From an uncultured Pseudomonadales bacterium (GTDB lineage Bacteria > Pseudomonadota > Gammaproteobacteria > Pseudomonadales > CANNCY01), in assembly GCA_947503335.1 (NCBI GenBank), contig CANNCY010000001.1, positions 946,845-1,010,844 on the forward strand: DNA of 64,000 nt. Reading direction: 5' to 3'. A program made the translations under genes and the position numbers. Within the stretch, counting starts at the first letter, position 1, and each line of letters starts with the position of its first letter. Under the pieces are notes generated by a model, which did no database searches, had not been told where the DNA came from, and saw only the letters and a program-made list of their open reading frames with translations. This document shows positions 109 through 62,611 of the stretch, piece by piece.

Positions 109-132
109 AAGCCTGCTCTTTCGAGCAGGCTT
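109..132 (-). terminator. Rho-independent terminator hairpin abutting att-like core copy 1
   Basis: 10-bp stem aagcctgctc / gagcaggctt with a 4-nt loop. A run of T follows it on the minus strand. Confidence 0.6.
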
Positions 133-141
133 TCTGTGTAA

Positions 142-157
142 TGGCATCCCGTACGGG
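142..157. repeat. att-like core copy 1, TGGCATCCCGTACGGG (contains the 10-bp palindrome CCCGTACGGG)
   Basis: The same core recurs at 2539-2553 and 62598-62611. Each copy lies 5-9 nt from a terminator hairpin on its low-coordinate side. Confidence 0.55.
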
Positions 158-181
158 AGTCGTGAAAAGCCAAATCTGGGA

Positions 182-308
182 CCCAATATTGGGTATACCC
201 TATAAAATTCAAACACTTAGCGACATTCTAAAGACGAAAAAAACTTTTCAAAAACTTAGTTAAATGCCCAAAGTTGGTACCCAAGCTTGGGATTTACCCA
301 AATTTGGG
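182..308. repeat. Cluster of four CCCAA-NN-TTGGG palindromes (putative protein-binding or arm-type sites)
   Basis: cccaatattggg 182-193, cccaaagttgg 268-278 (imperfect), cccaagcttggg 280-291, cccaaatttggg 297-308. Confidence 0.5.
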
Positions 309-445
309 TAGCAATATTGAGGGCCAAACTTACTGGGGTTTAGGCGATTCGATGCTGCTTAGACAAGAAATAAGCGCAGCTGCCTAAGAATCTGAGTACC
401 TTTGTATCGGCGCTTCATTGTACGTCAGACATGCAAATTATAGCC

Positions 446-474
446 TTGCGCCTATATAGGTCGAGACCTATAAT
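446..474 (+). promoter_or_regulatory. Putative sigma70 promoter and operator of the toxin-antitoxin pair
   Basis: TTGCGC, 17-nt spacer, TATAAT (469-474). Palindrome cctatatagg (451-460) lies in the spacer. The site is 24 nt upstream of the ATG at 498. Confidence 0.4.
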
Positions 475-497
475 ATGGAAAAACATAAGGTTTATAT

Positions 498-842
498 ATG
501 TGGGACGTTAATACAACAGACAGGTTTGATGAGTGGTATGACTCATTAGATGATGTTGACAGAAGTCGGGTCTTATCTAGCTTGATCCTTCTTCAAGAAA
601 AAGGCCCCATGCTATCTAGACCTCATGCAGATACTATTAAAGGTTCAAAGTACCCCAACATGAAAGAACTTAGGGTACAAAGCAAAGGAGATCCGCTGAG
701 AGCATTCTTTGCGTTTGACCCAGAAAGGAAAGGCATTGTGCTATGTGCTGGAAATAAAGCTGGCAATGAAAAGCAGTTTTACGACCGCATGATTCCAATA
801 GCAGACAGCGAATACGCTAACCATTTGACGAAGGTAGGTTGA
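498..842 (+). CDS. Type II toxin, RelE/HigB superfamily (phage Gp49-like)
   Basis: 114 aa. The pattern F..W...L....R..(L)..L...GP.L..P....(I)KGS....ELR...... RAFFAF....IVL..G.K is typical of Gp49/HigB-like toxins. A small HTH gene follows 4 nt downstream. Confidence 0.8.
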   Translation: MWDVNTTDRFDEWYDSLDDVDRSRVLSSLILLQEKGPMLSRPHADTIKGSKYPNMKELRVQSKGDPLRAFFAFDPERKGIVLCAGNKAGNEKQFYDRMIPIADSEYANHLTKVG

Positions 843-846
843 TATT

Positions 847-1149
847 ATGGCCCGTTCACTAAACGAAATGCTTAAAAACGAAAAGCCTGAAGTTGTTGAG
901 CAAGCTCGAACTATGGCTTCAGAGATGCTACTTGAAATTAACTTGGCAGAGCTACGTAAAGAGTTAGAAGTAACTCAAATAAAGATAGCTGAAGCGATGG
1001 GCGTAAAGCAACCTACGGTTGCCGGTATGGAAAAGCCTGGTCAAGACATGAAGCTATCATCACTGAAACGCTACATTGAAGCAGCAGGCGGCAAGCTTCG
1101 TATGGACATTGAGCTACCTGATGGCAGCCATAAGGGTTTCATTGTTTAA
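847..1149 (+). CDS. Type II antitoxin, XRE-type HTH (HigA-like)
   Basis: 100 aa. HTH segment VTQIKIAEAMGVKQPTVAGMEK. Tightly coupled to the upstream toxin in toxin-first order, as in higBA. Confidence 0.8.
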   Translation: MARSLNEMLKNEKPEVVEQARTMASEMLLEINLAELRKELEVTQIKIAEAMGVKQPTVAGMEKPGQDMKLSSLKRYIEAAGGKLRMDIELPDGSHKGFIV

Positions 1150-1214
1150 TATTGATCTGTCGAGTTAGCTATCGCTGGCTCGACATTCACTTACGCACAG
1201 AGTGTTTTTTTCAT

Positions 1215-1798
1215 AAACTAGGGTAATATCTGGCGTTCCCTCACCCGTGCCGGCTGATGTGACGACTCAGATCGGTTATTGTGATATTGCGAAGTATCGT
1301 GTCGCGAGCCATTCAAAAGCTCACGATATGCGACGCCATAGCTGCCCGACTTATCGCTTACGATGGTTCTCGGCATGCCACCCTTATTTGACGCTAAAAG
1401 CCGCTTAAAGAAACGCATGGCCGCCCCTGCCATCTCGACGTTTTTACACCAAGATATCAACGACATCGCCGTCTTGATCCACAGCGCGCCACAGATAATG
1501 GCGCTCACCGCATATATTGATAAATACTTCATCCATAAACCAGGTGTCGCCGAAGCATGATCGCTTTGCTCGTATTCGCTTCTCATATAGCCTGCCGAAC
1601 TTGTTGCACCATTGCCTAATAGACTCTCGTGTAACTGAGATTCCGCGTTCAGCCAGTAAATCTTCTACCTCTCAAAGGCTTAGGCTGAATTTAAAATACG
1701 ACCAAACAGCGAACTGGACAACTGAAGGTGAAAAGCGGTGACGTTTATAAGTAATCATGGGATCATTATCGCTAGTGCTGAGTTAACTTGCCAGTACC
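1215..1798 (-). pseudogene. IS6-family IS copy A: lacks the low-coordinate end and the transposase frame is broken
   Basis: ORF 1218..1586 matches the middle of the intact transposase at 5171..5860 (FFKRLLASNKG..TIVSDK.GSYGVA.RE). The terminal IR gagttaacttgccagtacc is kept at 1780-1798. The N-terminal part continues in a different frame. Confidence 0.8.
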
Positions 1799-2025
1799 AG
1801 GCCTTAAGGTTACTGATGCTAGAGCTGTCTGATAGGTCAACAGTGGCACGCGGGCACATTACGTTCAAAGCTTGAAACAAGTAAAACAATCTTGCTTTCG
1901 TGCTCAATTCTAGTCCACACGTGGACTCGAAGTGAGATATTCGATCTCTATAGGCGACTTAGTTCTGAGTATGGAGGTTTAGGCTTCAGTGAAACTTAAT
2001 AACCGATCTTGGAGGAAAGACTAAA

Positions 2026-2475
2026 ATGAACCTTAATATAACTAAGATTTTCATCTCGATCGCCCTACTATCGATAGCTTCAGTTGTCACCGCACAAGAC
2101 GAGTCGTTTACCTCAAAGCAGCGTGAAGTCATTGCCCTTGAAAAATCATGGGCAGAAGCCATGAAGACAAGGAATCTTGATCGCTTAGAAGAGATTCTGT
2201 CTTTCGACTATCGGTTAGCTTTTATCGACCGAGAGCCCGTGTTACGTGGTACTTGGCTACTCAACACCATGCACAACCTAAAATTCGACTCTATCAACAT
2301 GGAGTTTCATGATGTTGCCGTATTCGGTAACACAGCCGTAGTAAGCATGACTATGCATATGGACTGGAAAACAGAAGACGGAAAGCAAATGCCTAAGGCC
2401 GCTAAGTTAACTGATACGTGGGTGAGAACTAAAGACGGCTGGAAGGTAATCTCAAGAATCAGTGAAAGGCTATAA
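2026..2475 (+). CDS. Secreted NTF2-like (DUF4440/SnoaL-like) protein
   Basis: 149 aa with an N-terminal signal peptide. The W.EA....D...L..(L)...(Y) start and TD(T)W.....GWKV(I) end are typical of DUF4440. A paralog-like gene lies at 26437..26907. Confidence 0.6.
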   Translation: MNLNITKIFISIALLSIASVVTAQDESFTSKQREVIALEKSWAEAMKTRNLDRLEEILSFDYRLAFIDREPVLRGTWLLNTMHNLKFDSINMEFHDVAVFGNTAVVSMTMHMDWKTEDGKQMPKAAKLTDTWVRTKDGWKVISRISERL

Positions 2476-2506
2476 CCTACTGATTTTAATAGCATAAAAA
2501 CGAAAA

Positions 2507-2529
2507 AAGCCTGCTCAATGAGCAGGCTT
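2507..2529 (-). terminator. Terminator hairpin, near-identical copy of 109-132 (only the loop differs)
   Basis: Stem aagcctgctc / gagcaggctt with a 3-nt loop aat. The flanks are identical to copy 1 over about 45 nt. Confidence 0.6.
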
Positions 2530-2538
2530 TCTGTGTAA

Positions 2539-2553
2539 TGGCATCCCGTAGGG
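2539..2553. repeat. att-like core copy 2, TGGCATCCCGTAGGG
   Basis: Direct repeat of 142-157 in the same orientation, with the same spacing to the hairpin. Confidence 0.55.
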
Positions 2554-3038
2554 TAGTGTCCTTGCCCCCAGTTTGATATCAAATTTGACAATATTAACCG
2601 TACAATGTGGCCTGCAGCTTGATTACATGGTTTCAAGAATGCTCTATCAACCTGCTTTGGGAACGTCAAAACAATCATATTTACCACCAAACCATGATAA
2701 TGACTTCAAATTTAGCACCAAATCGAAGCTCGTGGAACAGGCGACTTCACAAAATCGAACATTCATTTCTTTGGATATAGGAACAAGACGAGATTGCTAT
2801 TCAATTAGGGAGATGACACATCGATAATAATCGAGTGCCTCCGAAGGCTTTTGAAGCCGAGTATGTTGAAAAACATAGGGAGTATCTAGAGATACTCACG
2901 CCTTATCAGTTAAGTCGAAATGATTAACATAACGACAGACCTACTTTTCAATGTTATTAATAAATGGAAGTGGGTACCATACGAGAAAATTCTGCTTTTG
3001 ATACCGATTAAATTACGGGTGATTACCCGACCAAATAG

Positions 3039-3127
3039 CGAACTGAGTAACTGAGGGCGAAAAGCGATGGCGTTTATAGGTATTCATGCGATTATTGTCG
3101 CTAGTGCTGAGTTAACTTGCCAGTACC
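3039..3127 (-). mobile_element. 89-bp IS6-family end remnant (copy B)
   Basis: Aligns with 5803-5900 of the intact copy, including the transposase start codon region and the terminal IR at 3109-3127. Confidence 0.8.
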
Positions 3128-3168
3128 TATTTCGTAAAGAATTTATCAGAGCACCAATAATTACTGGT

Positions 3169-4050
3169 CTACATAGGACTATCAACTTCCTGTATCAAAA
3201 ATCCACCTTTATAACGCTTGCCTACGGATTTTTTGAGTTCTCGTAATGACTTGATTGACTCAGTCGGATCTCGTAGAACTTGAATTCCGTAAACGTATCT
3301 GGGACAAGCCAATACAGCATCGACATGAACACCCTTGTATTTTTCGAAGTAGTAAAGGCTCCAAGGGCAAGACTCGCCTACGACCTCAGCGCTTAGTTTG
3401 GCTATTACTACATTCCTCAACAGGCTACGCCCATGGTTAGCGATGTCATTCCAACAGTACCGGGGATCAGCTGCTATCCGCCATCCATCCTCATAATCTG
3501 AGAAAACATATTTTGGCGTTCTTCTGATTCTAGAGTTTGTAAGTAAGTACGGCTGGATTCTACTAACCTTTGAGTTATGTTCAAGATATGACAATACGCG
3601 CGCAACCTGTGTCGACTGTTTTTTCAAATACTTAGCTATCCTTGCCTGGTTGAGCGCTCCATCGTCGGAGAGAATGATGGACTTGGATACAAGCTGTATC
3701 AGCTCGATTCGCTCCTGCTGCATAGAGTATTCCGCATAGGAATCCTGCTCCTCACATCCGCGTGACTTTAAAGTACTTAGGGCACGTTTGTGGCATCCAA
3801 AGGCAGCCACAAATAAAGGTTCCTGATCAGAAATCGTGGTAGTCAACCCTGCAGTAACTGGAGTTAAATCAGATAGCGATATCCCAACATCTCGAAGACT
3901 TTCAGAAGAAGAATAACTGAACTGATTCGCGCCCAAACTCAAAAAGCTGAACCACCTTACTGGAGTACCCTTTCCGGAATCTCTCGGCGAAGCTTCTCGA
4001 GCACTAATAAAAGACCTATATATCAAATCAAAAACATCACTCACGAGCAT
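3169..4050 (-). CDS. Hypothetical protein with a central winged-HTH-like segment
   Basis: 293-aa ORF. The segment ARIAKYLKKQSTQVARVLSYLEHNSKV looks MarR/wHTH-like. No other motif recognised. Confidence 0.5.
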   Translation of the reverse strand: MLVSDVFDLIYRSFISAREASPRDSGKGTPVRWFSFLSLGANQFSYSSSESLRDVGISLSDLTPVTAGLTTTISDQEPLFVAAFGCHKRALSTLKSRGCEEQDSYAEYSMQQERIELIQLVSKSIILSDDGALNQARIAKYLKKQSTQVARVLSYLEHNSKVSRIQPYLLTNSRIRRTPKYVFSDYEDGWRIAADPRYCWNDIANHGRSLLRNVVIAKLSAEVVGESCPWSLYYFEKYKGVHVDAVLACPRYVYGIQVLRDPTESIKSLRELKKSVGKRYKGGFLIQEVDSPM

Positions 4051-4256
4051 AATCCTATTTACTTTTGCATCTCAATATGTCTTAGCTGCAATGACCGAAA
4101 TTATCCCTATAACCTACGCTAAACCACCATTAACAGTGGGCAAAAAGAATAATTCATACGAAATATTACAGCAAAATCTCTGTCTAGCTCGAAAGTCTTT
4201 AGAAAAATTTTGTTGTTTAAGATGCATTCGACTCAAAAACAAAGGAGGAGTCTTAC

Positions 4257-4613
4257 ATGAAAAGGAATAGACTAGACGTAGTAAAAGATGCAATCGAAGC
4301 AACTGATAAAGGATTGAAAACTAACCGCGCTATAAACGCCCTATGCCGCGACTATCTAGATCTCTATTGTCAATCGGGGTGGGACAGCATCACGAAGCAA
4401 GGCCCTATCCTTATCGAACTAGCGACGGATGCTGTTAAGTGGGTAATTAAAGAAGGCACTTGGAACGATGGCGCTCCTGCTAGTTACCCTGACAGCATGA
4501 TCGATGCATACGAAGAAGGTTGCGAATGGAATTCATTAAGAAAGAAAGTTCTTGAGCGTATGTATAGCTGTCAAAAAGATGAATTCCTAGAGCTGCAAGA
4601 TCATCTTTATTAA
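4257..4613 (+). CDS. Hypothetical protein
   Basis: 118-aa ORF with RBS aaaggagg 5-6 nt upstream, divergent from 3169..4050. No motif recognised. Confidence 0.5.
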   Translation: MKRNRLDVVKDAIEATDKGLKTNRAINALCRDYLDLYCQSGWDSITKQGPILIELATDAVKWVIKEGTWNDGAPASYPDSMIDAYEEGCEWNSLRKKVLERMYSCQKDEFLELQDHLY

Positions 4614-4620
4614 CGTACAC

Positions 4621-5118
4621 GGTACTGGCAAGTTAACTATACAGGCTAGCCGGAATCAACCAATCAATGCATTCAACTTGCCGTCACACAACGCCAGACG
4701 CAAAGGCTTTGTTGCGGCGCTTTTTCGTAAGCGCCGCGTTACATAAATGTCGCTGAATATTAAATAAATTGTATACCGCTGAGTGGAGATTCAGAAAACG
4801 CTTTGCCTGTCTCATTGATTTGAATCGCCTCATCTGGCGCTCCCTCACTCGGGTAGGCTGATGTGACGACTCAGACCGGTTATTGTGATATTGCGAGGTA
4901 TTGTGGCGCGAGCCTTTAAAAAGCTCCCGATGTGCGACGCCATAGCTGCCCAGCTTATCGCTTACGATCGCTCTCGGCTTATCGCCCTTGTTCGACGCTA
5001 GCAACCGCTTAAAGAAGCGCTTGGCCGCCCTACTATCTCGGCGTTTTTGCACCAAAATATCAACGACATCGCCGTCTTGATCTACAGCGCACCACAAATA
5101 ATGGCGCTCACCGCGTAT
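4621..5118 (-). pseudogene. IS6-family IS copy C: low-coordinate IR plus the 3' part of the transposase, cut off by copy D
   Basis: IR ggtactggcaagttaac at 4621-4637. ORF 4684..5097 equals the C-terminal 137 aa of the transposase. Homology stops exactly where the IR of copy D begins at 5119. Confidence 0.85.
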
Positions 5119-5900
5119 GGTACTGGCAAGTTAACTCGACAACCCAGCCAAAATCAACCGGCCAATAGCTTTAACCTGCCGTTACGCAACGCCAAGACGC
5201 AAAAGCGTCATCGCGGCGCTTTCTCGTGAGCGCCGCACTGCATAAATGTCGTTGAATATTAAATAGATTATAAACCGCTGAATGGATATTGAGAAAACAC
5301 TGAGCTTGCCGCACTGATTTGAATCGCCTCATCTGGCGTTCCCTCACTCGTGTTGGCTGATGTGACGACTCGGACCGGTTATTGTGATATTGCGAAGTAT
5401 CGTGCCGCGAGCCATTCAAAATCTCACGGTGTGCGACACCATAGCTGCCCAGTTTATCGCTTACAATCGTTCTAGGCCTACTACCCTTATTTGACGTTAG
5501 CAGGCGCTTAAAGAAACGCTTGGCCGCCCTACTATCTCGGCGCTTTTGCACCAGTATATCAACGACATCTCCGTCTTGATCCACAGCCCGCCAGAGATAA
5601 TGGCGCTCACCCCGTATATTGATAAATACTTCATCCATAAACCAGGTGTCACCGAAGCAAGGTTGCTTTGCTCGCAGCCGCTTCTCATATAGCCTACCGA
5701 ACTTGTTACACCAATGCCTTATAGACTCTCGTGTGACTGAGATTCCGCGTTCGGCCAATAAGTCCTCGACATCACGAAGACTTAGACTGAATTTAAAGTA
5801 AGACCAAACAGCGAACTGGATAACTGAAGGTGAAAAGCGATGACGTTTATAGGTATTCATGTGACCATTGTCGCCAGTAACGAGTTAACTTGCCAGTACC
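5119..5900 (-). mobile_element. Intact IS6-family insertion sequence (782 bp)
   Basis: Perfect 20-bp terminal inverted repeats, ggtactggcaagttaactcg at 5119-5138 and its reverse complement at 5881-5900. A single transposase ORF lies inside. Confidence 0.9.
5171..5860 (-). CDS. IS6-family DDE transposase
   Basis: 229 aa. Size and sequence are typical of IS6/IS26-like Tnp (WFMDEVFI, WRAVDQDG.V.D.LV, SDK.GSY, HNNR.E.SHQP.R.RE). Confidence 0.9.
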   Translation of the reverse strand: MNTYKRHRFSPSVIQFAVWSYFKFSLSLRDVEDLLAERGISVTRESIRHWCNKFGRLYEKRLRAKQPCFGDTWFMDEVFINIRGERHYLWRAVDQDGDVVDILVQKRRDSRAAKRFFKRLLTSNKGSRPRTIVSDKLGSYGVAHREILNGSRHDTSQYHNNRSESSHQPTRVRERQMRRFKSVRQAQCFLNIHSAVYNLFNIQRHLCSAALTRKRRDDAFASWRCVTAG

Positions 5901-6092
5901 TTCCAGCAATATGGGAAACGAAATTACAAGCTGGCGGGTGGTTTATAGATGTCCCTGAAGACATCTTTGATAGTGGCGCAGGTATAGGAGACGGTTTGGC
6001 TGGCGAGCCAAATGTTAACTATGTTGCAATCGGCCATATATGTGTTCAGACGCTACTGTACACTCTTTGACAATCAGCGGAAATGGGAGCGA

Positions 6093-6944
6093 CTATAGCC
6101 GCTCCCATTTTCCGGATTCGAAGTTATATTGCTCGTAGGCTTGTAAATGTTCATGTGACACGCCGAATGAGTTAATTTGGTCTTTCAGGTTCTCCGCTTG
6201 CCCAAATCCAAGGTAAGCCTCGTTATATCGTGACTGGCTGAGTGTACTGTTAATAAACGGAGCATGTAGGTATTCTCGCAATTTAAACGTTGAGCCAAAT
6301 GTCTCTTTTGAAATATCTAAGGCGCCAAATCTGCGAGTAACGTTGTCGGGCCCGCGCTCAAATTCGATGATCTCAATGATGCGATCTCTAAAGGCCGCTG
6401 CGGATTGTCGTAGCGCTTCGTTAGCGTTGAGCTTAGAAGCTATGAACTCTGATAGCGGCTGACTTGAGGACATTACAATAATTTGGTTATTTGCATCGAT
6501 CGAGAACTCCCATGGCTGAGCACTCGCGAGCGGGTACTCACGCGCAAGTTTTCGAGCAGCGCTAATGTAGTCCTCCCAAAGGGTACTGGCAACATCGCCC
6601 ATGCCACCAATGAGCATACCAAATAGTGCTTCACCATGACGCCACGATTGCTCCCGCCCCGTTTCCTGAATCGACGGATCTTTGACGACAGGCCTTACCC
6701 ACTTAAGATCTTGTATTTCGAGTCCTTCAGGGCCGTGAGTCAATCGGTCGGCGCGTTCTGCCAGCAGCCCCTTGAGGATCACCCCCTCGGTACGGTCAGT
6801 ACGACGGATATTCGCCTGATCACCTGTTACGTATTCAGACTGTACGGGATCAGCGGCACTGTCTGTAACGCGTACATCGTCCAGCGGGTTAAGTAAGGGC
6901 TGAGCCCACTGGGGCGTGGCAGTTGGCACTGGAGGAATCTTCAT
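6093..6944 (-). CDS. Hypothetical protein (orphan, locally GC-rich)
   Basis: 283-aa ORF. No recognisable motif. An 11-bp-stem hairpin overlaps its stop codon (6081-6110). Confidence 0.5.
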   Translation of the reverse strand: MKIPPVPTATPQWAQPLLNPLDDVRVTDSAADPVQSEYVTGDQANIRRTDRTEGVILKGLLAERADRLTHGPEGLEIQDLKWVRPVVKDPSIQETGREQSWRHGEALFGMLIGGMGDVASTLWEDYISAARKLAREYPLASAQPWEFSIDANNQIIVMSSSQPLSEFIASKLNANEALRQSAAAFRDRIIEIIEFERGPDNVTRRFGALDISKETFGSTFKLREYLHAPFINSTLSQSRYNEAYLGFGQAENLKDQINSFGVSHEHLQAYEQYNFESGKWERL

Positions 6945-7309
6945 TTACTTATTACCTACTGGCTGATCTAATCAGATATCGGCAAACATGACAGCGACTT
7001 TAGAAACAACGGGCTTATTACCTAATGCCAGTTTGTTTAGGTTTCACCTTATTAGTGCGTCATTCGAACTAGCTACAATCACAGGCTCAGCGCCGCAATA
7101 CGATGTTCCCAGAAATGTATCGATAAAGGGTGTAGCTTAGGTATTTTAGATGGGCGCTAATATCAGCTCCTAGTAACGACAAAATGGTTTTACCGGATGC
7201 TTACCAGACTTTAACTAGCTGATATGAATAAGTCTTAACTTGATCTGTCAGGTTTGACTAATAGAACTTAATCAAACCTGACAGTCGCATAAGTGCCCAA
7301 AAGCAGACC

Positions 7310-7528
7310 TTAAGATTTATTGCAGCAACTGCTTCCTTCTTGAATAGGTGGGCATTTAACAGTCCCGTAAGAGCAATAAACGCAACAATCGCCTTTTAAC
7401 GGCTTGAGTAGCGCTTTGCATCCCTCACATTCGTAATACCACTGGCAGGCGTTTGTTGGCATGGTCTCGACCTTACTAAATCCGCATTTGGGACAAGTAA
7501 TCTTAGATTCTAATTCTATACCTTGCAT
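7310..7528 (-). CDS. GDCCVxC-domain metal-binding protein
   Basis: 72 aa, Cys-rich, with a zinc-ribbon-like CPKCG...CEGC and the LKGDCCVYCSYG motif. Overlaps the merC-like stop by 13 nt. Confidence 0.8.
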   Translation of the reverse strand: MQGIELESKITCPKCGFSKVETMPTNACQWYYECEGCKALLKPLKGDCCVYCSYGTVKCPPIQEGSSCCNKS

Positions 7529-7905
7529 ACGGGTTCCTTAACTGGCTTAACGATATCCAACACTGACATAATTACCATCCATGTGATCCCAAAGTAAAAT
7601 AAGTAAGTGCTCCAGTCGTATTGCCACAACGGATAAAGTGCCAGCAATACTGCAATTGGGCCAACTACACTTAATATGCCTCTTACCACATGCTTATGTT
7701 GATACCAGTTGTACGAGTTGACCAATAAAGCGAGTGCAGCAAACAATGGTAATAAAGTATTAACCGCTATTCCTTCAAAATGAGACAGGAAACCAAGCCC
7801 TAGAGCTGATGCTAGTGAACCGAGTGCTGGAAAACATGCTGTGCAGCTAAGTGCGGCTAGCCAAACGCCACCAGAGCCGATTTTATCAAGAATTTTATTA
7901 ATCAT
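7516..7905 (-). CDS. merC: Mercury transporter MerC
   Basis: 129 aa, 4 TM segments. CTACFPALG, GLGFLS..EG and LLPLFAALALL match my recollection of Tn21 MerC. Confidence 0.85.
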   Translation of the reverse strand: MINKILDKIGSGGVWLAALSCTACFPALGSLASALGLGFLSHFEGIAVNTLLPLFAALALLVNSYNWYQHKHVVRGILSVVGPIAVLLALYPLWQYDWSTYLFYFGITWMVIMSVLDIVKPVKEPVCKV

Positions 7906-7927
7906 AATTACCTCTATTTTTGAGGTA

Positions 7928-7958
7928 GTTTAAACTCCGTATATAGGTACAGAGTCAA
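7928..7958 (-). promoter_or_regulatory. MerR-type promoter/operator (19-nt spacer with a dyad)
   Basis: Minus strand reads TTGACT, then ctgtacctatatacggagt (19 nt), then TTAAAC. The dyad is ACTCTGTA..TACGGAGT. Confidence 0.6.
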
Positions 7959-7961
7959 CAG

Positions 7962-8339
7962 CTAACTGAGCGAATTTATTATTGGGCATGAGTTGGGGTC
8001 TTGATTGGCTTTACAAGAATTTGTCATATCTTGAATCACCTGCTCTAGCCGCTGCAAATCAGAAATTTTCTCCCTAATTAATCTGAGTTTCTGTAATCCC
8101 ATAGACTCGACATCAGCACAGCTTCCACTTAGCGACATAAGCGAAGCGACTTCATCAAGTGTAAAACCCAAAGCTTTAGCTTTTAATATGAATTTAAGTT
8201 GATTGACATGTGTGTTGTCATAGATGCGATAACCGCTATCAGGCTTTAGTGGCTGTACAATAAGTCCTTTACGTTCATAGAATCGGACTGTTTCTACGTT
8301 AATGCTTAGTTCTTTAGCCAGCTTTCCAATGGTTTTCAT
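7962..8339 (-). CDS. merR: MerR-family Hg(II)-type regulator
   Basis: 125 aa. N-terminal HTH NVETVRFYERKGL. Cys positions (SGSC, NSC, SCPIINSL) parallel the three metal-binding Cys of MerR. Confidence 0.75.
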   Translation of the reverse strand: MKTIGKLAKELSINVETVRFYERKGLIVQPLKPDSGYRIYDNTHVNQLKFILKAKALGFTLDEVASLMSLSGSCADVESMGLQKLRLIREKISDLQRLEQVIQDMTNSCKANQDPNSCPIINSLS

Positions 8340-8564
8340 AAACAGACTCTCTTAAACAACTAGCATCATTTTATCATTATTAGACAAAAGCTGAACTTCC
8401 GTTAATCGCTTATAGCTGCCTGTCAGATGAAGTCTAAACCTAATCAGCAAAACTGTATGATCAGATATGAGCTACTACAAGTAATTAATGTTATTCAACT
8501 AAATAGTTCTTGATCATCAATTGAGAAATTGAACTCTCAATAAACCTCTGCTGTTAAAGAGAGA

Positions 8565-9104: not shown

Positions 9105-9155
9105 ACCGATTAAACCTGAATAAAATAGATCTGAGATTACCTGACATATAGATCT

Positions 9156-12098: not shown

Positions 12099-12099
12099 A

Positions 12100-50706: not shown

Positions 50707-50884
50707 TACCTACAAACATAAATTACGATTTACTTGATGGCCGAGTGTTGCTGTATAACTCAAGCGAATAGGACTATCACTCTCTTACATTGACTGGGTC
50801 TATTTTAAGGAATGAAGTGATTTCTGAGCATAATTATAACGGATAGTACGAAACTGCCCCACCGGGAATGATTTTATGCGCTGA

Positions 50885-55100: not shown

Positions 55101-55403
55101 CACAAGTGCAATCCATGTGTTGCTCTCCGTGCGATCAAAGAGCATGCGGTCATCATTACCTGCCTTTACCCCGAGCGCATACGCCTCCAATGTACGCGAC
55201 TCGCTCTTGCTGGCATCGCTCTGCGCGTTGTAAGACAGCTTGGTTTTGTCTGCGCCTGCAAGTACGGTCTGGATTGCATCAAGCAACGAACTTTTGCCCG
55301 AGCCGTTTGCTCCCTTCAAGAGCACAACGTCACCCTTGATCGCGAGGTCGATGTTGTCAAATAGGTACCAGTTGACCAGTACAATACGCCGAAGTTTAAT
55401 CAT
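52146..55403 (-). CDS. jetC: Wadjet JetC (SMC-like ATPase)
   Basis: 1085 aa. Walker A GANGSGKSS, a long coiled-coil middle, signature-like SVGERQ, and Walker B LFDEAFEGVD. Confidence 0.9.
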   Translation of the reverse strand: MIKLRRIVLVNWYLFDNIDLAIKGDVVLLKGANGSGKSSLLDAIQTVLAGADKTKLSYNAQSDASKSESRTLEAYALGVKAGNDDRMLFDRTESNTWIALVWEKPSGAMITTGVYVHAKAGSSDTKRAPFIAHAGLQASDFLVKENQAKTWKLFKDEATIPVDVFAMASEYRDVFAEQLSGKGRRDKFDPLAILRLLKRTLSFKHEQNLYDFIHSYVLPERNIDLKTLRNDHQLFKDIEQRIAHTKEKSDDVAAILTKLKKALKQTRIIEALKWAKYEGIVTQGELKIEGIEAKIERLDESIDEAEQADADYKVRISEAREEQASLIRAGAGNAANELQRLDNELRRLHSDKDQAKQQLIRPVTVLDALLETGDTERLFSVVNPYRASLAQSPSSAGLEQLIDALTTCLSESHATQHGLLEKQTKLRTEAGQLTQSHQALSAGRIERSKEVQNFIAICEQQGIRAMPLPDALNDDLHSTTQLETALYDLRDVVVVPSGQVVAAQSLLAEKNLLGVRLLLPSSGDGATETPYMKSGFDEYNGVIAGVVAATREDAETPSLHCIYERVIASKPSVEIVGLEARKKRAEALADQLKLVKAELRELERDTEKVTEQIHHLQVAITQLGLIDISAIEATLAELDTAIDATSEKRSVLEGSSEAQEDRYQKITQALDSLEAEKENGVGDLARMRNELKNASENLERSQVQLESAITERSALEANDAYDAAEYEALLTHEKVDPGETDLTTIERRMHERQEKFEKIRSGIIESVSYFSKTYDYTLNSNLQSGPLTELNTEMVSIHTKLVETDLARFSTQAREAANSMLTHFKTKVVQQLSENFADLRTHLSALNAQLNKLVFNGNTYSFHHARKEDVQTKQLLDYVERASNVGEHDYGGMFDDTTKEDDEALAIIQAVIEDESLAHLGDYRQYYTYDLRYRNLERETKMSVSRTRGVASVGERQTPLYVVLGAALMNTYKIRTSATGEPRGGIGISLFDEAFEGVDAANSSASLAFFASIGLQCLIAAPSDSETKIGGYCDQIVSIIRSGDTIEVLSKEPTHRTRDLLESDNPLIHSELIDAFLEEGEAVNA

Positions 55404-56055
55404 GGGCCGCCTCCTTGCTGTCTATCACCGTAGTGGCTTCTACTGGATCATGTGTATGGGTTTCGCTTGCCGCAAACTTTGCAAGGTGCAACATGTAGGC
55501 ATCATCAATCACATACTCAATCGAGGGCAGTACGCTAATGAAGTGCATCTTAGATTGCTCGCACACTTCTTTGGATAAGCGAATAAGCCCAATGTCCGCC
55601 AATTGCTCAAGCGCGTCATTCATTTCGCGCTTCGATGGCAACTCGGTTTTCGTCAATTGAGAATAGGTGTCGCATACAAGACCTGGGGGCGGCTCAGATA
55701 TGCCGGCATCAGTGCAACCCTTGAGTGACTCTGAATGATGCAGCTGACGAAGAATAAGTGCGAGAATGCTTGTAAGCTTTGGCAGCGTTCGCGCCTTAAA
55801 GCGTTTAGGCATGATACCGACCAAACCAAAATGCTCATCCACAACAAGCTGGTACCCCATCAAGTGATAGAGCACGGTAAGTTCTTGCTGAAATTGCACC
55901 GCAAGGTTAAACAGCTGTCGTTTACCTGCATCGGCCCGGAGAAACCATTGACGACGAATCAGCTCAATATTTAGATTCTGCAAGTCATCAATGTCTTGGT
56001 TGTTTGCTTCTAGCGCGCTAGAAAATGCTTGCTCAATGGCTCTAAGCGGTGTCAT
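55396..56055 (-). CDS. jetB: Wadjet JetB (MksE-like)
   Basis: 219 aa. Called from size and position between jetA and jetC, with overlapping stops and starts. Confidence 0.75.
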   Translation of the reverse strand: MTPLRAIEQAFSSALEANNQDIDDLQNLNIELIRRQWFLRADAGKRQLFNLAVQFQQELTVLYHLMGYQLVVDEHFGLVGIMPKRFKARTLPKLTSILALILRQLHHSESLKGCTDAGISEPPPGLVCDTYSQLTKTELPSKREMNDALEQLADIGLIRLSKEVCEQSKMHFISVLPSIEYVIDDAYMLHLAKFAASETHTHDPVEATTVIDSKEAAHD

Positions 56056-57391
56056 ACAGTGCCTCGTTCAGTTCAAAGCGTAATGTAGGGCAGGTCAAAT
56101 AGTCGTTACGTGTCTCACCACCCGTCAGTTCGACGCGGAAATATTTCAATACGGGTGCAAGTGGGTGCGTGCTGCTCGCATGGTAGAGGTCGAGTAACTG
56201 AGAGAACGCGACATAGTCCTCAATGGTATCGATCGCTATGCCATTGGTATCACGTATGCCTTGCTTGTACCATTGCAGCAGCGTCTCCAATAATCGCGCT
56301 GGGTCATTCGCCCGCGTCTCTAAATACTTTGACATAAGCTTGTCCATCGCGATGGCGCGTGGATCGGCGGGTGCTCGCTCAACACGGGTGACGCTCGCCG
56401 GCGGCTTAGCGGTGCGCGGCTCGTAAAGCGCATTGACGGCGATATGGCGCGCAGGCGCCCAAGTCGTCGTGTCGGTTTGCGGCATATCAGCGATCAGCTC
56501 CAACGCGTCAACGACAGCATCTTCCGTTGCGCTGGTATTACGTGAGGCATAGTGGATAATTTCATTGATGCGACTGGTGATGGTTTGCGTCCAATCTTCA
56601 AATGCCTGTATGAGTGGCTTAATAAGTCGAATGTCGTGTTCGATACGTTTAATAAGCGCCTTAACCTCACACGCCTCTTTAAATGCAGCATCTGCCTGAA
56701 TGTCGATAGTCCAGGTGAGATCCAATATTTGGCGAATCCGCCCATACGGGTAACCCTTCCCCGATGAGGCTTGTTTGAAGTTTGGGAAAAGATCTTGAAT
56801 ATAACGCTCAAAAAACAATTCAACCTGTTCGGGAGCCGACGCAATATCGTTCACTTGTTGCGCAAGCTCCTGTGACGCTGCCACAAGGTTACCTAATCGA
56901 CGCACGTAGCTCTTTGCACGCACCGACGCCTCGTTTAAGGCATTGGCTCGGGTTTCGACAGGCCGTTCCGCGTCGTTAGCTCGGTCTAGCCAGACGATGA
57001 CCGCTTCGCACTCGGCCTCAGAATCAACCTCACCTACTTCCATGGTCGCAAGTGTCGTGTACAGTGATCCAGCTGCTAGCGGCATAAACACAGTCTTGCG
57101 ATAGCCCTTAGCATTCGCCTCTTTGAGCCAGCCGACCTCTTTTAATCTGTCATAGACCTTGGCTGCCTCTTCGGATAGGTCGTCGTCACTCATTCCTTCC
57201 TCGACCATCAAAAACTGCTTGATGGTCAGTTTGATGTCGGACGGCTCAGGCTGCGTGAATCCATCACTCATGTCCCCCTGCACGAGTTCAGCATGCAGAT
57301 GATCGAGCACAGAGATATACAGATCCCGCTTCATCGAGCACAGTGGGCGCAAAAGGTCTGTAGGACAGTTGCGCAAAGAAAGCTTATCCAT
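56042..57391 (-). CDS. jetA: Wadjet JetA (kleisin-like, MksF-like)
   Basis: 449 aa. First gene of the four-gene operon. Called from size and order. Confidence 0.75.
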   Translation of the reverse strand: MDKLSLRNCPTDLLRPLCSMKRDLYISVLDHLHAELVQGDMSDGFTQPEPSDIKLTIKQFLMVEEGMSDDDLSEEAAKVYDRLKEVGWLKEANAKGYRKTVFMPLAAGSLYTTLATMEVGEVDSEAECEAVIVWLDRANDAERPVETRANALNEASVRAKSYVRRLGNLVAASQELAQQVNDIASAPEQVELFFERYIQDLFPNFKQASSGKGYPYGRIRQILDLTWTIDIQADAAFKEACEVKALIKRIEHDIRLIKPLIQAFEDWTQTITSRINEIIHYASRNTSATEDAVVDALELIADMPQTDTTTWAPARHIAVNALYEPRTAKPPASVTRVERAPADPRAIAMDKLMSKYLETRANDPARLLETLLQWYKQGIRDTNGIAIDTIEDYVAFSQLLDLYHASSTHPLAPVLKYFRVELTGGETRNDYLTCPTLRFELNEALYDTA

Positions 57392-57434
57392 AAGTTAAAT
57401 ACAGCAAGTCGTCAAAGGTGACTATTATTAAGTT

Positions 57435-57449
57435 ATCTTTGCAAAAGAT
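57435..57449. promoter_or_regulatory. Candidate operator ATCTTT-GCA-AAAGAT in the jetA / WYL divergent intergenic region
   Basis: Perfect 15-bp palindrome, 44 nt from the jetA start. Confidence 0.35.
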
Positions 57450-57552
57450 CAAGCACTGCTGTTATTATGCAGCTGATAGTTGGCTTGCCCTGTTAGCGCA
57501 CTTCGCTTGGGCACCCATTGACCAAAGACTGAGCACAAAATACATAGATACC

Positions 57553-58356
57553 ATGGCTAAGCACGCATTTAACTTACAAGGTTGGATTGCCAAGACAGTG
57601 TTTTGGCAGCGCAGAATCAATGCAAAAGGCATCTCTGCAGACCTCGGTATCTCGCTTGCTCCGGCAACGCGTGAGCTTAAACGCTTTGTTACAGAATTTA
57701 ACGACGGGCTTGAGGAACACGCCAAAGGCCATTGGTATGTATACCCTCGGCCAGACTTTGACCCGTCACCACTGTACGACCCATTAAACGACCTCTGCTC
57801 GCCAGCAATGGTTACCTTCGAGCGCTCATTTCAGTCGCCTGTAGGTGAGCCAACTATTATCGCGCGCCCATCAATCCCCGTCTTAAGTCGTATGATTCAT
57901 GCGATTGTCAATGCACAGGACCTGTTGATCACGTACCAAAGCCTAGGCAAGGCGGCATCGCATCGAAGAGTAACCCCTAAAAGCGTCACAGGGTCACTGG
58001 GTCGCGTGTACTTGAGCGCATACTGCCATACAAGAAAGGATTGGCGCGCATTCAACCTTGATCGTATTTCGGCGATTGAAATAAAGCAGGCGACCAGCCA
58101 AAGCCTGCCACCCGAGCCAAAGGTAACGCTGTCGATTCAGGCGAACCCTCATCTTGGCGGTGAAGAGCAAAGTCTGCTTGAACACACACTCACTCAATCG
58201 CGCTATGTCATGGATACAACAAAGGCATTCATGTTTAATACGGGCAACGGCATCAACCCGACTATAGCTACACGCTCAATCGAATCCCAGTTTCCTAGTT
58301 TATACCCATACGTAGTTCACGACATGTGCGAGTCCGCTGACAATAGAAAGACTTAA
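57553..58356 (+). CDS. WYL-domain transcriptional regulator (BrxR/CapW-like architecture)
   Basis: N-terminal HTH ISADLGISLAPATRELKRFV and WYL-like core RVYLSAYCHTRKDWRAFNLDRISAIE. Start chosen at MAKHAF (57553); the ORF track starts at 57418. Confidence 0.7.
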   Translation: MAKHAFNLQGWIAKTVFWQRRINAKGISADLGISLAPATRELKRFVTEFNDGLEEHAKGHWYVYPRPDFDPSPLYDPLNDLCSPAMVTFERSFQSPVGEPTIIARPSIPVLSRMIHAIVNAQDLLITYQSLGKAASHRRVTPKSVTGSLGRVYLSAYCHTRKDWRAFNLDRISAIEIKQATSQSLPPEPKVTLSIQANPHLGGEEQSLLEHTLTQSRYVMDTTKAFMFNTGNGINPTIATRSIESQFPSLYPYVVHDMCESADNRKT

Positions 58357-58615: not shown

Positions 58616-58972
58616 TTGTATAGGAAGAATAATTCAAACGAAGGGGATACTCCGATGGAACCAATAACAACAGCTGCTTTATCAGGCATTGTTTATGATA
58701 TGCTCAAGCATTCAGTTTTACTCACTGCGCGCAATATAAAATCACGACTAACGGACTGGTTGGTTGAGGATGGTATTGCAGAAAAACTGGAAATCGAACT
58801 AGCTAAACTCACCCTAAACGACGATATGAGTGAAAAGGCTATTAGAGCAACTATGGACTCATCGGATGCATTACTAGCATTAGTTAGCCAAATAAAGCCA
58901 TCAGCTACCTCTACAATCAATCAGTCTCATAGCGGTATCGGCGACAATGTAGCAACTATAAAAAATGCTTAA
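58616..58972 (+). CDS. Small helical protein of unknown function
   Basis: The likely true start is ATG 58655 (RBS aagggga 7 nt upstream), giving 105 aa. It ends in NQSHSGIGDNVATIKNA. It shares a reading frame with the next ORF. Confidence 0.5.
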   Translation: MYRKNNSNEGDTPMEPITTAALSGIVYDMLKHSVLLTARNIKSRLTDWLVEDGIAEKLEIELAKLTLNDDMSEKAIRATMDSSDALLALVSQIKPSATSTINQSHSGIGDNVATIKNA

Positions 58973-58975
58973 ATT

Positions 58976-61900
58976 ATGACTGACACTAAGCATTATAAAT
59001 CAGCTGCATCTCAGGTCCATAAGGGAACAGGCCATAACATTGTCGTTTATGAAAATCATAATGCAATAACACCTTCAACACTAAGTAGTAGTCTCAGCGA
59101 TATACTCCTGGATGTACTACACCGCAAGCACAGAGCAGTAAAAGAAAAAGTTGAGATCCTTGAAAAGTCAGGAAAACTTGATCCACAATCAACATACTTT
59201 CTTACAGCAATTAAACTGCTTGTAGATTTTGTTGAAGGGAAAATAGCTGATGATGCCCTAAGACAGCTAGATGCTATTGTGCAATCCGACCCTACTTCTG
59301 ACCTGCTGGACATTACTCAAGCAGCTAAAATAACCCTTTTTTGTAAACAGGGTGATCTGCTTAGTGCAAAAGCATTATTTGAATCAATTAAGTCCCCAGG
59401 GCTATATTCGCGTAGTGCCTTTTATGAATATTTACAAAACCCTAATGAGTTAAGTGCTATTTATGAAAGCTCTACTCATAACCTTGGTGAAGCAGAACTT
59501 TGTGCAATTATTAGAAGGAGCTTAACAACGAACAAATTCGCTTTGGCAGCAGGCATATCAGATCTTTTGGTGAAACGATACCCATCGGTTAACAGTCGTT
59601 TCCTGGAGGCTATTTCAAATATTAATGACTTGCTTCAAGGGCGAAATATCCACTTTTGGAATATTTCAGCGACTCAGAAAAAAGAACTATTTGAGTGGGC
59701 TGATAAGCTTTCTCTATTGCTCGATGAAAGTGAAGGCCTCGATGCTCGCGTAGTAGAGCTTTCCGGTCATGTATGTCATTTTTGTCATGGTGAACATCAG
59801 GGCTTGCTGGAGTCTTGCTGGAGGTATATATCTGCACTTGATAGACATGCGCCGCTCGCTGCTATGTCTATTCGTAGTGTTTTTGAAGCTAACCCAAACC
59901 ATGGTGATGGCTTAATCGGCGAGATGACTAAAGCGCAAAATGATAAGGCTTACCGAAAGGAAATAATAAATAATTTAAGGAACTCTAAAGATCTATCAGC
60001 AGAAGACGTTGTTATTCTGAGTCGATACGGCGATTCCGAGTCTATACAGGATTGGATAGAGAAAGGCGGACATATCGTCTCAGATGATGATTTTGAGAAT
60101 GACTACTCAATGCTTGAATTGGTTTGTTTTTCTTATAATAAATCACCGGAAGTTGACAAACAGATAGAAGCCCTAGGGAAAGCCTTTCTCGAAAAACACG
60201 AGGAAAAGTTTAGTGAAATTAATCCGCTTCGGCTCGTCGACCTTGCGAGCAAGCTGATTGATGCAAACCAAGCGTTTTTGGCTGCTCAGCTTTTAAGACC
60301 ACACATCCCCGAAGCAGATATCTGGCCTTCTGAACTTGTTCGGTGCTATTTGAACTCACTATTGGCTAGCGGTCAATATAAGACCCTCGACGAAGTGATT
60401 AAGCGAATCCCTCTTCACGAAAGAGATAGCTTTGTGTGGCACGTTGTAGCCACAAAGCTTGCATACCAAGGCGAAATACCAAATGCTATCAATACCTTAA
60501 AGAAGTCGCTTAAAATTTTTCCCTACTCTATCACTATACATAATTACCTTTTATATCTTTATGTTCGTCATGAATATCCCGAAAGGGAATTAAGCGACTT
60601 TCTTTCAGGCATCCCAGAAAAAATTCTCGAAAAAGAGTCTCCTCAGGCATTAAATATACTTTTTGCTATAGCCAAGTATCATGACTTTTCTGCGGCCGAA
60701 CGAATAATATTGAACTGGTATGTTGCAAATCCAATTACATCAGCAGTTTCGATTACCGACTTTTATGGAAGACTATTAGTTGATAAAACTATGCACCCTA
60801 CGCTTTCTCTTTCTTCGGGTAGCTGTCTTGGTGCATATCAATATACCAGAAATAACCACCATGTAACTCAGCTAGTTATTGCCGCTCATCTAGACACTGA
60901 GCATAATTCATTACTCAAAGAGGATACTCCATTAGCTAAAATTTTGATTGCTGGTGAAGATCAAATGCTTGGTACGAATAGTATAGAGAATATCAAACAG
61001 TTATCACCATTAGCGGCTGCCTTCTCACTTGCAGCTGAAATAAGGCAGGCAAATAATCATGGGTTCGACCCTTTTATGCAGCTTGGTGGGCACAATACGA
61101 CGGTAGAAGAGAGTGTTAATCAGCTAATCAAAGTACTTCAATCTCAGGACAATCGAGAAGATCAAATTTCCGACCCTAATATACCGCTATATATGAAGGG
61201 GCACAAAATCGGCAATGGGTGTCCAGTTCAGAAAGCTTATGACCACTTGACATCAAAAATTTCTCACAAAGAACCATTACCTAATTTTGGCACGGATAAG
61301 CCGGAGAGCGTAATTCTCGATATTTATGGAGTGCTACTCATTAGCTGTAATGGACTTTCATCGCCAATATCAGAGAGCGGTATCACCCTACATATAACTT
61401 ATGAAACCAAAAAGCTAATTTATAAATGGCTAGAGCAAGTTGATGATGAGCATGGCCGCTTCAATGTAGGCTCCGATGGCAAGATTTGGATGGAGTCATC
61501 AGAGGACATCCAACGAAAAACCAAAGCGATAAGAGATGGCATCAATGTCATCATGGACAATGCCAAAGTTCTTTCTCCAAACTTGGCTGATATGCCGCCT
61601 CAGCTGTCGTCAATTCATGACTCTGTTGATATATCAGTATTTTCAAGTATGACGCTGTCTCACGCAAACGACATACCCTGGTTATGTATTGATCCGATAT
61701 TTGCGAGCTTATGGCATACAACTAATAATAAGGTTATCAAGGCCAACAACTTTCTTCTGGCAATAGCGAAAAATGCGGATTTTGAAGATAAAAGAGAAGG
61801 TATATATCTTCATGTTGCTGCCGGAATGCCAAGATGGGTCGGTTTTGATGAACTTGTGGAGCTAAGTAAATCTGATAATGAGTACGCGCCATACTTTTTG

Positions 61901-62302
61901 GCAAAACTACTTGAGATGTATCCATCTTCATATGGAAATAGTCTTGATACAACGAGATTTTTGAGTGTTCTATTATCCAATTCTCTTTTAAAAATATTAC
62001 ATCCCAGTCACCCTATTTGGCATGGGTTGCATGAAATCAACCCTTTAAATAATGGCTACCTAGAAAAACTCTTTTACACCGTTTGCCGTGTAGTGCTCGC
62101 GTCAAAGAGCGAGCGGAATGCTGAGTATAAGTTTGCTTTTCTTATAAATCAGATAATCGATATTTTCGGTATACATGAAGAGGGTAGACGGTTGGTTTCA
62201 ATACTCGCTACCAGATTCGCTCGCGGTCACTTTCTGGATTTTAATGCCATTAACACTTACATAAAGTCTTTTTCCGTTATCGCTGAAGACAGCTCAGATT
62301 AG
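58976..62302 (+). CDS. Large (1108 aa) helical-repeat protein of unknown function
   Basis: Long uninterrupted ORF, AT-rich. No P-loop or catalytic motif recognised. The N-terminus SQVHKGTGHNIVVYENHN echoes the C-terminus of the upstream ORF. Confidence 0.6.
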   Translation: MTDTKHYKSAASQVHKGTGHNIVVYENHNAITPSTLSSSLSDILLDVLHRKHRAVKEKVEILEKSGKLDPQSTYFLTAIKLLVDFVEGKIADDALRQLDAIVQSDPTSDLLDITQAAKITLFCKQGDLLSAKALFESIKSPGLYSRSAFYEYLQNPNELSAIYESSTHNLGEAELCAIIRRSLTTNKFALAAGISDLLVKRYPSVNSRFLEAISNINDLLQGRNIHFWNISATQKKELFEWADKLSLLLDESEGLDARVVELSGHVCHFCHGEHQGLLESCWRYISALDRHAPLAAMSIRSVFEANPNHGDGLIGEMTKAQNDKAYRKEIINNLRNSKDLSAEDVVILSRYGDSESIQDWIEKGGHIVSDDDFENDYSMLELVCFSYNKSPEVDKQIEALGKAFLEKHEEKFSEINPLRLVDLASKLIDANQAFLAAQLLRPHIPEADIWPSELVRCYLNSLLASGQYKTLDEVIKRIPLHERDSFVWHVVATKLAYQGEIPNAINTLKKSLKIFPYSITIHNYLLYLYVRHEYPERELSDFLSGIPEKILEKESPQALNILFAIAKYHDFSAAERIILNWYVANPITSAVSITDFYGRLLVDKTMHPTLSLSSGSCLGAYQYTRNNHHVTQLVIAAHLDTEHNSLLKEDTPLAKILIAGEDQMLGTNSIENIKQLSPLAAAFSLAAEIRQANNHGFDPFMQLGGHNTTVEESVNQLIKVLQSQDNREDQISDPNIPLYMKGHKIGNGCPVQKAYDHLTSKISHKEPLPNFGTDKPESVILDIYGVLLISCNGLSSPISESGITLHITYETKKLIYKWLEQVDDEHGRFNVGSDGKIWMESSEDIQRKTKAIRDGINVIMDNAKVLSPNLADMPPQLSSIHDSVDISVFSSMTLSHANDIPWLCIDPIFASLWHTTNNKVIKANNFLLAIAKNADFEDKREGIYLHVAAGMPRWVGFDELVELSKSDNEYAPYFLAKLLEMYPSSYGNSLDTTRFLSVLLSNSLLKILHPSHPIWHGLHEINPLNNGYLEKLFYTVCRVVLASKSERNAEYKFAFLINQIIDIFGIHEEGRRLVSILATRFARGHFLDFNAINTYIKSFSVIAEDSSD

Positions 62303-62564
62303 CGTATCTACTAAGGCTACCCCGGGTGACAAGCATTGGATTACTCGTGAGAGGTCTCCATTTATATGACCTAAATCAAGCCAACTTAGCCAATTACATT
62401 GAGGAAACTTCATACAAGCGCCAAACAGTAGAACAGACGTAAAAGGGCCAAGCTTGGACTCATAAATTAGCTACAGGTAAAAATATGTCCCGTATAAGGC
62501 GGCTAAGTATATATGAGCCGGAAAGGTACCTGGTCGAAGAATTTATAATAATCAAAAACGAAAG

Positions 62565-62592
62565 ACCCCAGCTGCTTTTCAGCAACTGGGGT
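62565..62592 (-). terminator. Terminator hairpin abutting att-like core copy 3
   Basis: Stem accccagctgc / gcaactggggt with one mismatch. TCTTTCGTTTT follows on the minus strand. Confidence 0.5.
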
Positions 62593-62597
62593 TAAGA

Positions 62598-62611
62598 TGG
62601 CATCCCGTAGG
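62598..62611. repeat. att-like core copy 3, TGGCATCCCGTAGG
   Basis: Same orientation as copies 1 and 2. The high-coordinate flank resembles that of copy 1. Confidence 0.55.

Follow-up and report, generated by a model that had tools for sequence, protein, structure and literature searches.

A 64,000-nucleotide stretch of DNA from an uncultured Pseudomonadales bacterium of the lineage CANNCY01 (assembly GCA_947503335.1, contig CANNCY010000001.1, positions 946,845 to 1,010,844 of the forward strand; hereafter the window) contains three short direct repeats, here called cores, that derive from the 3′ end of a tRNA-Glu(UUC) gene. We are confident that they are duplicated tRNA 3′ ends from successive element insertions, by which at least three units were stacked in tandem: a small unit A between cores 1 and 2, a 60-kb island B between cores 2 and 3, and a unit C that begins at core 3. 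A sequence-only reading of the window had described the repeats as attachment (att) scars left by repeated integration into the 3′ end of a transcription unit on the minus strand; our analysis supports this and identifies the unit as the tRNA-Glu(UUC) gene. The mechanism of accretion is already well known, and the value of the case lies mainly in annotation. It marks tRNA-Glu as an insertion hotspot in this marine gammaproteobacterium and provides exact junctions for a 60-kb island joining three anti-phage systems (Qat, Wadjet and GAPS6) with resistance to copper, zinc and mercury. With the cores known exactly, excision can be assayed by polymerase chain reaction and related genomes can be searched for other cargo at the site. 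A nuance here is the long junction module, terminator included, that is common to the related small units.

Cores derived from the tRNA-Glu 3′ end

All three cores lie on the plus strand, at the positions and in the common orientation originally reported (TGGCATCCCGTACGG at 142–156, TGGCATCCCGTAGGG at 2539–2553 and TGGCATCCCGTAGGT at 62598–62612). With up to two mismatches allowed, the core motif had 3 matches in the window against 0.14 expected, a number reached in none of 100 shuffles. In the minus-strand reading, each core ends in ...TACGGGATGCCA and a terminator comes next, an arrangement like that at the 3′ end of a tRNA-type gene. Their reverse complement is the 3′-terminal part of the tRNA-Glu(UUC) gene (…CGACTCCCCTACGGGATGCCA), from the last bases of the T-loop through the T-stem and acceptor strand to CCA; a Kangiella tRNA-Glu gene, ending in ...GGGGTTCGACTCCCCTACGGGATGCCA, served as the reference for matching.

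Public data agree with this assignment. The 15-mer core had 124 matches in public genomes, of which ~100 were chance hits to so short a pattern, and the matches with structured context were all tRNA-Glu genes (e.g. four copies in Marinobacterium and two in Kangiella). All seven matches of the 21-mer core in the viral collection were intact tRNA-Glu(UUC) genes. A transfer-messenger RNA (tmRNA) or tRNA-Sec target, suggested by the GCCA end, was ruled out, as the typed matches were all tRNA-Glu. ARAGORN and Rfam searches of the window returned no tRNA, tmRNA or other RNA gene, the cores being too short for such tools, and no 5′ or middle piece of a tRNA-Glu gene was found in the window besides the three 3′-end fragments.

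The sequence-only reading had named a dispersed repeat at many unrelated loci as the outcome that would speak against it; what we observed was three copies in the window and structured public matches confined to tRNA-Glu. That a repeat of the repetitive extragenic palindrome or miniature inverted-repeat transposable element type lies at these positions by chance is extremely improbable. The module is indeed repeated and contains a hairpin, but its sequence is tRNA-derived, and its three copies in 64 kb share one orientation and all sit at composition or cargo boundaries. Nor did patterns of the module match viral, plasmid or JGI metagenome data: terminator + core and core + arm patterns found nothing in JGI metagenomes, arm A/C, arm C, T3 and core 2 + arm B patterns found nothing in viral collections, and a BLAST search of plasmids with both junction regions was negative.

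An allele without the 60-kb island

Near-identical relatives of the higB-like toxin of segment A led to two short metagenome contigs, L128 and L129, from two samples and two assemblers. Both contain the core, and both have the order higBA, terminator, core and C-type arm, contiguous and with the 60-kb segment absent. L129 positions 1–812 match window positions 421–1233, the higBA region, at 96.6% identity (96.6–97% for L128/L129), and the match stops exactly at the truncated edge of an insertion sequence (IS) fragment of the IS6 family. Positions 835–909 match 2478–2552 (terminator and core 2) at 92%, and positions 895–1033 match 62597–62735 (core 3 and the high-coordinate arm) at 80.7%. Against a constructed junction, in which a crossover in the core removes the 60 kb, 170/196 positions of L129 aligned across the junction; against the occupied left junction, the alignment ended at the core. 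The unoccupied site that the sequence-only reading had proposed to look for is thus present in L128 and L129 for the 60-kb segment. The opposite outcome that it had named, ancestral intervening DNA with no empty alleles, was not seen; both contigs are empty-site alleles lacking this segment. A misjoin in the two contigs is unlikely because the repeat is shorter than the assembler k-mer (k = 141 for L128) and because the two assemblies agree. The allele concerns island B only.

L129 adds a fourth tRNA-Glu fragment (895–915). Each of the four fragments has one mismatch, at a differing position among the four C's of the T-stem 3′ strand (variants CCCg, aCCC, CaCC and CgCC). Decay, variation of the donor tRNA-Glu, or an attP feature that avoids a second foldable tRNA end are possible causes. 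The palindrome first noted in copy 1 is present (CCCGTACGGG, 148–157); it has no separate meaning, being one C-to-G change away from the tRNA sequence CCCCTACGGG.

Terminators, arms and the proposed order of insertion

Next to each core, at a distance of 5–8 nt, a hairpin with a U-run lies on the minus strand. RNAfold and a separate consensus scan both agree with the earlier view of these as rho-independent terminators. The hairpins are G+C-rich, with 12–13 bp; terminators 1, 2 and 3 fold at −27.9, −21.6 and −26.5 kcal/mol (z = −5.4, −4.4 and −4.1 vs shuffles) and were called at 135–106, 2532–2504 and 62592–62565. Copies 1 and 2 share the same terminator with a different loop (tttc vs aat), as had been described, but the repeat is longer than the ~45 nt given then: it spans 89 nt (73–160 vs 2470–2557) at 85% identity.

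Arms A, C and that of L129 are homologous past the tRNA-derived part (0/300 shuffles reached the scores; for arm A, score 33 vs a shuffle mean of 17.5). Arm B aligned to arms A and C no better than shuffles did, and at least two element families, an A/C type and a B type, have therefore used the site. Across the four junctions (three in the window and that of L129), the only common block is ATGGCATCCCGTA, of 13 nt. The low-coordinate side tracks the terminator type (T1/T2/L129 vs T3), and the high-coordinate side tracks the arm type (A/C vs B), a split predicted by reciprocal recombination within the shared block. Recombination of an attB site [T][core][arm C] with an attP site [T3][core][arm B] yields [T2][core 2][arm B]...B...[T3][core 3][arm C], which matches the observed order. 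T3 is missing from the unoccupied-site allele and therefore arrived with island B, of which it is the right arm. T1 may belong to the chromosome, as the 3′ flank of tRNA-Glu, or may be another element's right arm.

We propose that the attP of each element contains the tRNA-Glu end, and that a tyrosine integrase would recombine attP with the tRNA gene inside the 13-nt block ATGGCATCCCGTA (tRNA positions 65–76 plus one base). Insertion would rebuild the tRNA with element DNA and shift the previous 3′ end, together with older elements, downstream, leaving one partial tRNA copy per integration event. The element would also bring a rho-independent terminator immediately behind the tRNA end that it carries, so that the rebuilt tRNA still terminates. 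Each element bringing one for the rebuilt gene would explain the terminator beside every scar; that an element must supply it is suggested by two unrelated families both placing one 5–8 nt after the tRNA end. Under this scheme, unit A would be a decayed, IS6-cut remnant with higBA and a DUF4440 piece that behaves as cis-mobilizable, unit B a 60-kb mosaic of defence and metal resistance with its own arm and terminator, and unit C an element related to A that begins with a Fic gene.

Rearrangement (duplication, inversion or deletion) between paralogous tRNA-Glu loci, by homologous recombination or through IS6, is a very unlikely source of this arrangement. The IS6 copies at 1228–1798, 3028–3128 and 4621–5900 clearly caused deletions, and the repeat shared by copies 1 and 2 runs 70 nt past the tRNA end, as such events could leave. 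Yet no repeat end coincides with an IS end, no copy is accompanied by a tRNA body, and all four junctions break in one 13-nt tRNA block, for B with unrelated sequence on one side. Moreover, T3, unrelated to T1 and T2, sits at the same place relative to the core.

Unit A and its relatives

Unit A (163–2538), between cores 1 and 2, encodes only higBA, an IS6 fragment and a DUF4440 protein. Flanked by attL and attR and devoid of integration or transfer genes, it has the make-up of what is termed a cis-mobilizable element (CIME), which would be excised or mobilized by the integrase of a neighbouring element. The earlier description of tandem segments stands; its limits (158–2506 and 2554–62564) are better drawn at 163–2538 and 2560–62597, because the terminators are part of what was inserted. 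In L129, higA is directly followed by the terminator and core, and the window ceases to match at the IS6 edge; for this reason, segment A as read from its sequence is probably what is left of two units that an IS6-associated deletion joined. The DUF4440 gene is the surviving tRNA-proximal end of a decayed unit, and the deletion at the IS6 edge probably took out a terminator, a core and the greater part of another unit. The two DUF4440 genes were judged not to be paralogues.

The A/C-type units share a junction module of ~230 nt (terminator + core + arm), which is unusually long. Such a module could instead be a dedicated recombination site, an analogue of attC, in a cassette array where higBA, DUF4440 and Fic units are shuffled by one integrase at the array head, beside the intact tRNA-Glu, and where the 60-kb island is an unrelated guest. 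Homology among the A, C and L129 arms and among the T1, T2 and L129 terminators, combined with differing cargo, fits such an array. So does unit A at ~1.17 kb, consisting of arm, toxin–antitoxin (TA) pair and terminator with no mobility gene, and so does the recurrence of the same unit A with the same downstream module in two other samples. The cargo types (a TA pair, Fic and a small unknown protein) are also similar to what chromosomal integron cassettes carry. However, just three or four units are seen, one of them IS-damaged, and an array-head integrase is not visible in the window. No integron integrase was detected, the sole NCBIfam match being E = 4e-4 (19.9 bits vs a cut-off of 220), and decay of related elements to CIMEs fits the same facts and is documented. 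We consider a cassette array improbable. If it were true, the locus would be an undescribed integron-like gene-capture platform on tRNA-Glu in which the terminator of each cassette keeps the tRNA functional.

Relatives of HigB at 82–83% identity occur in unrelated contexts with no tRNA-Glu fragment. A 213-kb metagenome contig (L136) carries an 82%-identical higBA at the edge of another island (1–10700), which has two integrase genes, TacAT, an Rhs fragment and IS66, adjoins polB, lysS and prfB, and lacks a tRNA-Glu fragment. The TA pair therefore travels among islands with different targets. Arm A contains three ACCCAA-NN-TTGGGT palindromes (181–309; two perfect, one with 1 mismatch) that occur nowhere else in the window and may be putative binding sites for a dimeric regulator, excisionase or integrase.

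The integrase and the intact tRNA gene

Several observations weigh against successive integration at tRNA-Glu. No integrase gene adjoins any of the three cores, which are flanked by genes for HigB, DUF4440, a DUF4143 remnant, PIN-TPR and Fic; the sole tyrosine integrase (678 aa, 43149–45185) is separated from core 3 by 17 kb and from core 2 by 40 kb. The 64-kb window lacks the intact tRNA-Glu gene, and the tRNA-Glu reference comes from other Gammaproteobacteria and may differ from the host's own. The unoccupied site is documented by two metagenome contigs, both short, in which the arm has only ~81% identity to arm C. Pristine unit A, judged from the window and L129, measures only ~1.17 kb, small and tidy for a decayed element. 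Finally, T1, T2 and the L129 terminator are homologous for ~35 nt past the hairpin, so that the right arm resembles the would-be chromosomal flank, which simple integration does not require.

The intact tRNA-Glu(UUC) gene should lie on the minus strand beyond position 64000, because the tRNA body would be on the high-coordinate side of its core. The 678-aa integrase could be that of island B if the serine-recombinase/Wadjet/GAPS6 block was later inserted between it and T3. The IS6 copies mark places where DNA was deleted, at the distal end of segment A and at that of segment B, and integrase genes may have been lost with it. These copies and fragments (1228–1798, 3028–3128 and, as two partial tandem copies, 4621–5900) are 84–87% identical to one another.

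The 678-aa protein was recognized as a tyrosine integrase by a phrog_1 match (E = 9e-20) and has a long N-terminal extension. It is encoded with a 66-aa XRE-type helix-turn-helix (HTH) protein, a 185-aa protein and a 635-aa protein without a detectable family, and this four-gene set (43149–48167) may be an undescribed multi-gene recombination module. The integrase had no relatives in the plasmid and viral collections and is a singleton in the protein collection; neither it nor the 635-aa protein has a relative with a solved structure. Paralogy of these two proteins was rejected.

Cargo of island B and unit C

The cargo, with its TA pair, Fic, Qat, Wadjet, GAPS6, metal resistance and IS elements (Table 1), is of the kind that islands usually carry, and the mosaic GC content is likewise typical of them. 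In the complete Qat system, QatA is a KAP NTPase (PADLOC E = 6e-208), QatC scores above the NCBIfam cut-off, QatD is a TatD protein and QatB is also present. Island B further encodes MerC/MerR and MntP and contains an IS21 IstB fragment. Within the heavy-metal block, CopA is a P-type ATPase, and CzcA is at least 90% identical to proteins of Pseudoalteromonas, Thalassotalea, Aestuariibacter and Saccharobesus, a sequence similarity that points to a metal-resistance module common to Alteromonadales and their relatives. By its shared cargo alone, the host would probably be placed in Alteromonadales.

The Wadjet and WYL genes have ~50% GC vs ~40–45% in neighbouring DNA. Together with the serine recombinase (48469–58356), they may form a separate element nested in island B; the ends of such a serine-recombinase-borne element were not found. 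UniRef names relatives of the PIN-TPR protein "GapS6b". Relatives of the GAPS6-like pair, ~77% identical and in the same two-gene arrangement, occur in Microbulbifer within an element that has a DUF927 primase and an integrase fragment, and in marine metagenomes the pair is flanked by housekeeping genes with no tRNA near. Given these varied contexts, the pair travels as a unit.

Unit C is related to unit A through its homologous arm. Its Fic product is 407 aa long, with its start beyond the window end, and P0001 is 100% identical to it. Relatives of Fic (at most 56% identical) occur in unrelated contexts with no tRNA-Glu fragment. Further proteins of the window are singletons of the source genome in the protein collection.

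Table 1. Features of the tRNA-Glu locus in window coordinates.
Feature	Position	Strand	Description
Terminator module T1	73–141	-	~35-nt conserved stretch, 13-bp hairpin at 106–135 with U-run, 6-nt spacer
Core 1	142–162	-	tRNA-Glu 3′-end fragment CGACTCCCgTACGGGATGCCA; 21 nt, 1 mismatch
Arm A	163–497		Distal att arm of unit A, sharing homology with arm C and that of L129
higB-like toxin gene (Gp49 family)	498–842	+	Unit A cargo
HTH antitoxin gene	847–1149	+	Unit A cargo, with the higB-like gene
Truncated IS6-family copy	1228–1798		L129 homology stops at its truncated edge
DUF4440/SnoaL-like gene	2026–2475	+	Convergent with terminator T2; not in L128/L129
Terminator module T2	2470–2538	-	Hairpin at 2504–2532; homologous to T1 and the L129 terminator (92% to L129)
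Core 2	2539–2559	-	tRNA-Glu 3′-end fragment acaCTaCCCTACGGGATGCCA; last 15 nt exact (CCCTACGGGATGCCA), 1 mismatch over 19 nt
Arm B	2560–3027		Distal att arm of the 60-kb island; ends at the IS6 end fragment 3028–3128
Island B body	3028–62564		Mosaic
DUF4143 ATPase remnant and IS6 copies	4621–5900		In island B body
QatDCBA	9156–13860	-	Complete Qat anti-phage system
Small serine resolvase	13879–14484		Adjoins Qat
Heavy-metal block	14578–38091		MerR regulators, CzcD, CzcCBA, cupredoxin, CopA, CopCD, PepSY/FAD reductase pair, CusCBA with CusF domain, DUF411
HTH, 185-aa, 635-aa and 678-aa tyrosine-integrase set	43149–48167	-	Integrase at 43149–45185
Large serine recombinase, 511 aa	48469–50004		Beside the type I Wadjet operon
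JetDCBA, type I Wadjet	50885–57391		Anti-phage system
WYL regulator	57418–58356		After Wadjet
HetE-N (118 aa) and PIN-TPR-GreABC (1108 aa)	58616–62302		GAPS6-like pair
Terminator T3	62565–62597	-	12-bp hairpin at 62565–62592 and 5-nt spacer; sequence unrelated to T1/T2
Core 3	62598–62618	-	tRNA-Glu 3′-end fragment CGACTCaCCTACGGGATGCCA; 21 nt, 1 mismatch
Arm C	62619–62760		Distal att arm of the next unit; 81–82% identical to the L128/L129 arm; homologous to arm A
Fic/DUF4172 (SoFic-like) gene	62864–64000	-	First cargo gene of unit C

Comparison with known systems

Like chromosomal integron arrays, the locus has small units of varied cargo separated by a conserved, hairpin-containing module resembling a recombination site. 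Unlike integrons, it has no IntI, attI or attC-type site, its module is tRNA-derived, its cargo lies in both orientations, and a 60-kb island shares the site.

Gamma-Mobile-Trio (GMT) islands, defined by a GmtY/GmtZ/GmtX trio at the 5′ island border (bioRxiv 10.1101/2023.03.28.534373), are likewise rich in defence genes, and the window shares with them a GAPS6-like pair and a three-gene run ending in a tyrosine recombinase. The trio of the window has another gene order, and the NCBIfam GMT models (GmtY/GmtZ/GmtX) did not match the 185-, 635- and 678-aa proteins. The targets of GMT islands are short inverted-repeat sites and not tRNA genes (bioRxiv 10.1101/2023.03.28.534373). A GMT origin of the repeats was ruled out on both grounds.

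In tycheposons, partial tRNA copies between adjacent elements record successive integrations at one site, with older elements pushed distally (bioRxiv 10.1101/2020.12.28.424599). The locus described here likewise has neighbours split by a partial tRNA copy, older or degenerate elements in the distal position, and adaptive or defensive cargo. It differs in that the host is not a cyanobacterium and that tRNA-Glu appears nowhere in the text of that study. No genes of the tycheposon hallmark, an integrase with a primase/helicase module, were recognized in the window, and Pfam, NCBIfam and PHROG scans of all open reading frames of at least 90 aa returned no primase or helicase module.

The locus fits the tandem accretion of integrative elements at the 3′ end of a tRNA gene, including that of CIMEs, units that have decayed but retain both att sites and that stack up in tandem with elements arriving later (PMC5704250, reviewing Pavlovic et al. 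2004 and Bellanger et al. 2011). Relative to those cases (PMC5704250), our locus has a tRNA-Glu target in a marine gammaproteobacterium, no conjugation or mobilization genes were seen, and the shared junction module of ~230 nt includes the terminator and ~35 nt beyond it. In common with them (PMC5704250), the repeats are the 3′ end of the target gene and att copies split the tandem units. Unit A keeps its att sites without recombination or transfer genes, and a newer element occupies an att site of the resident.

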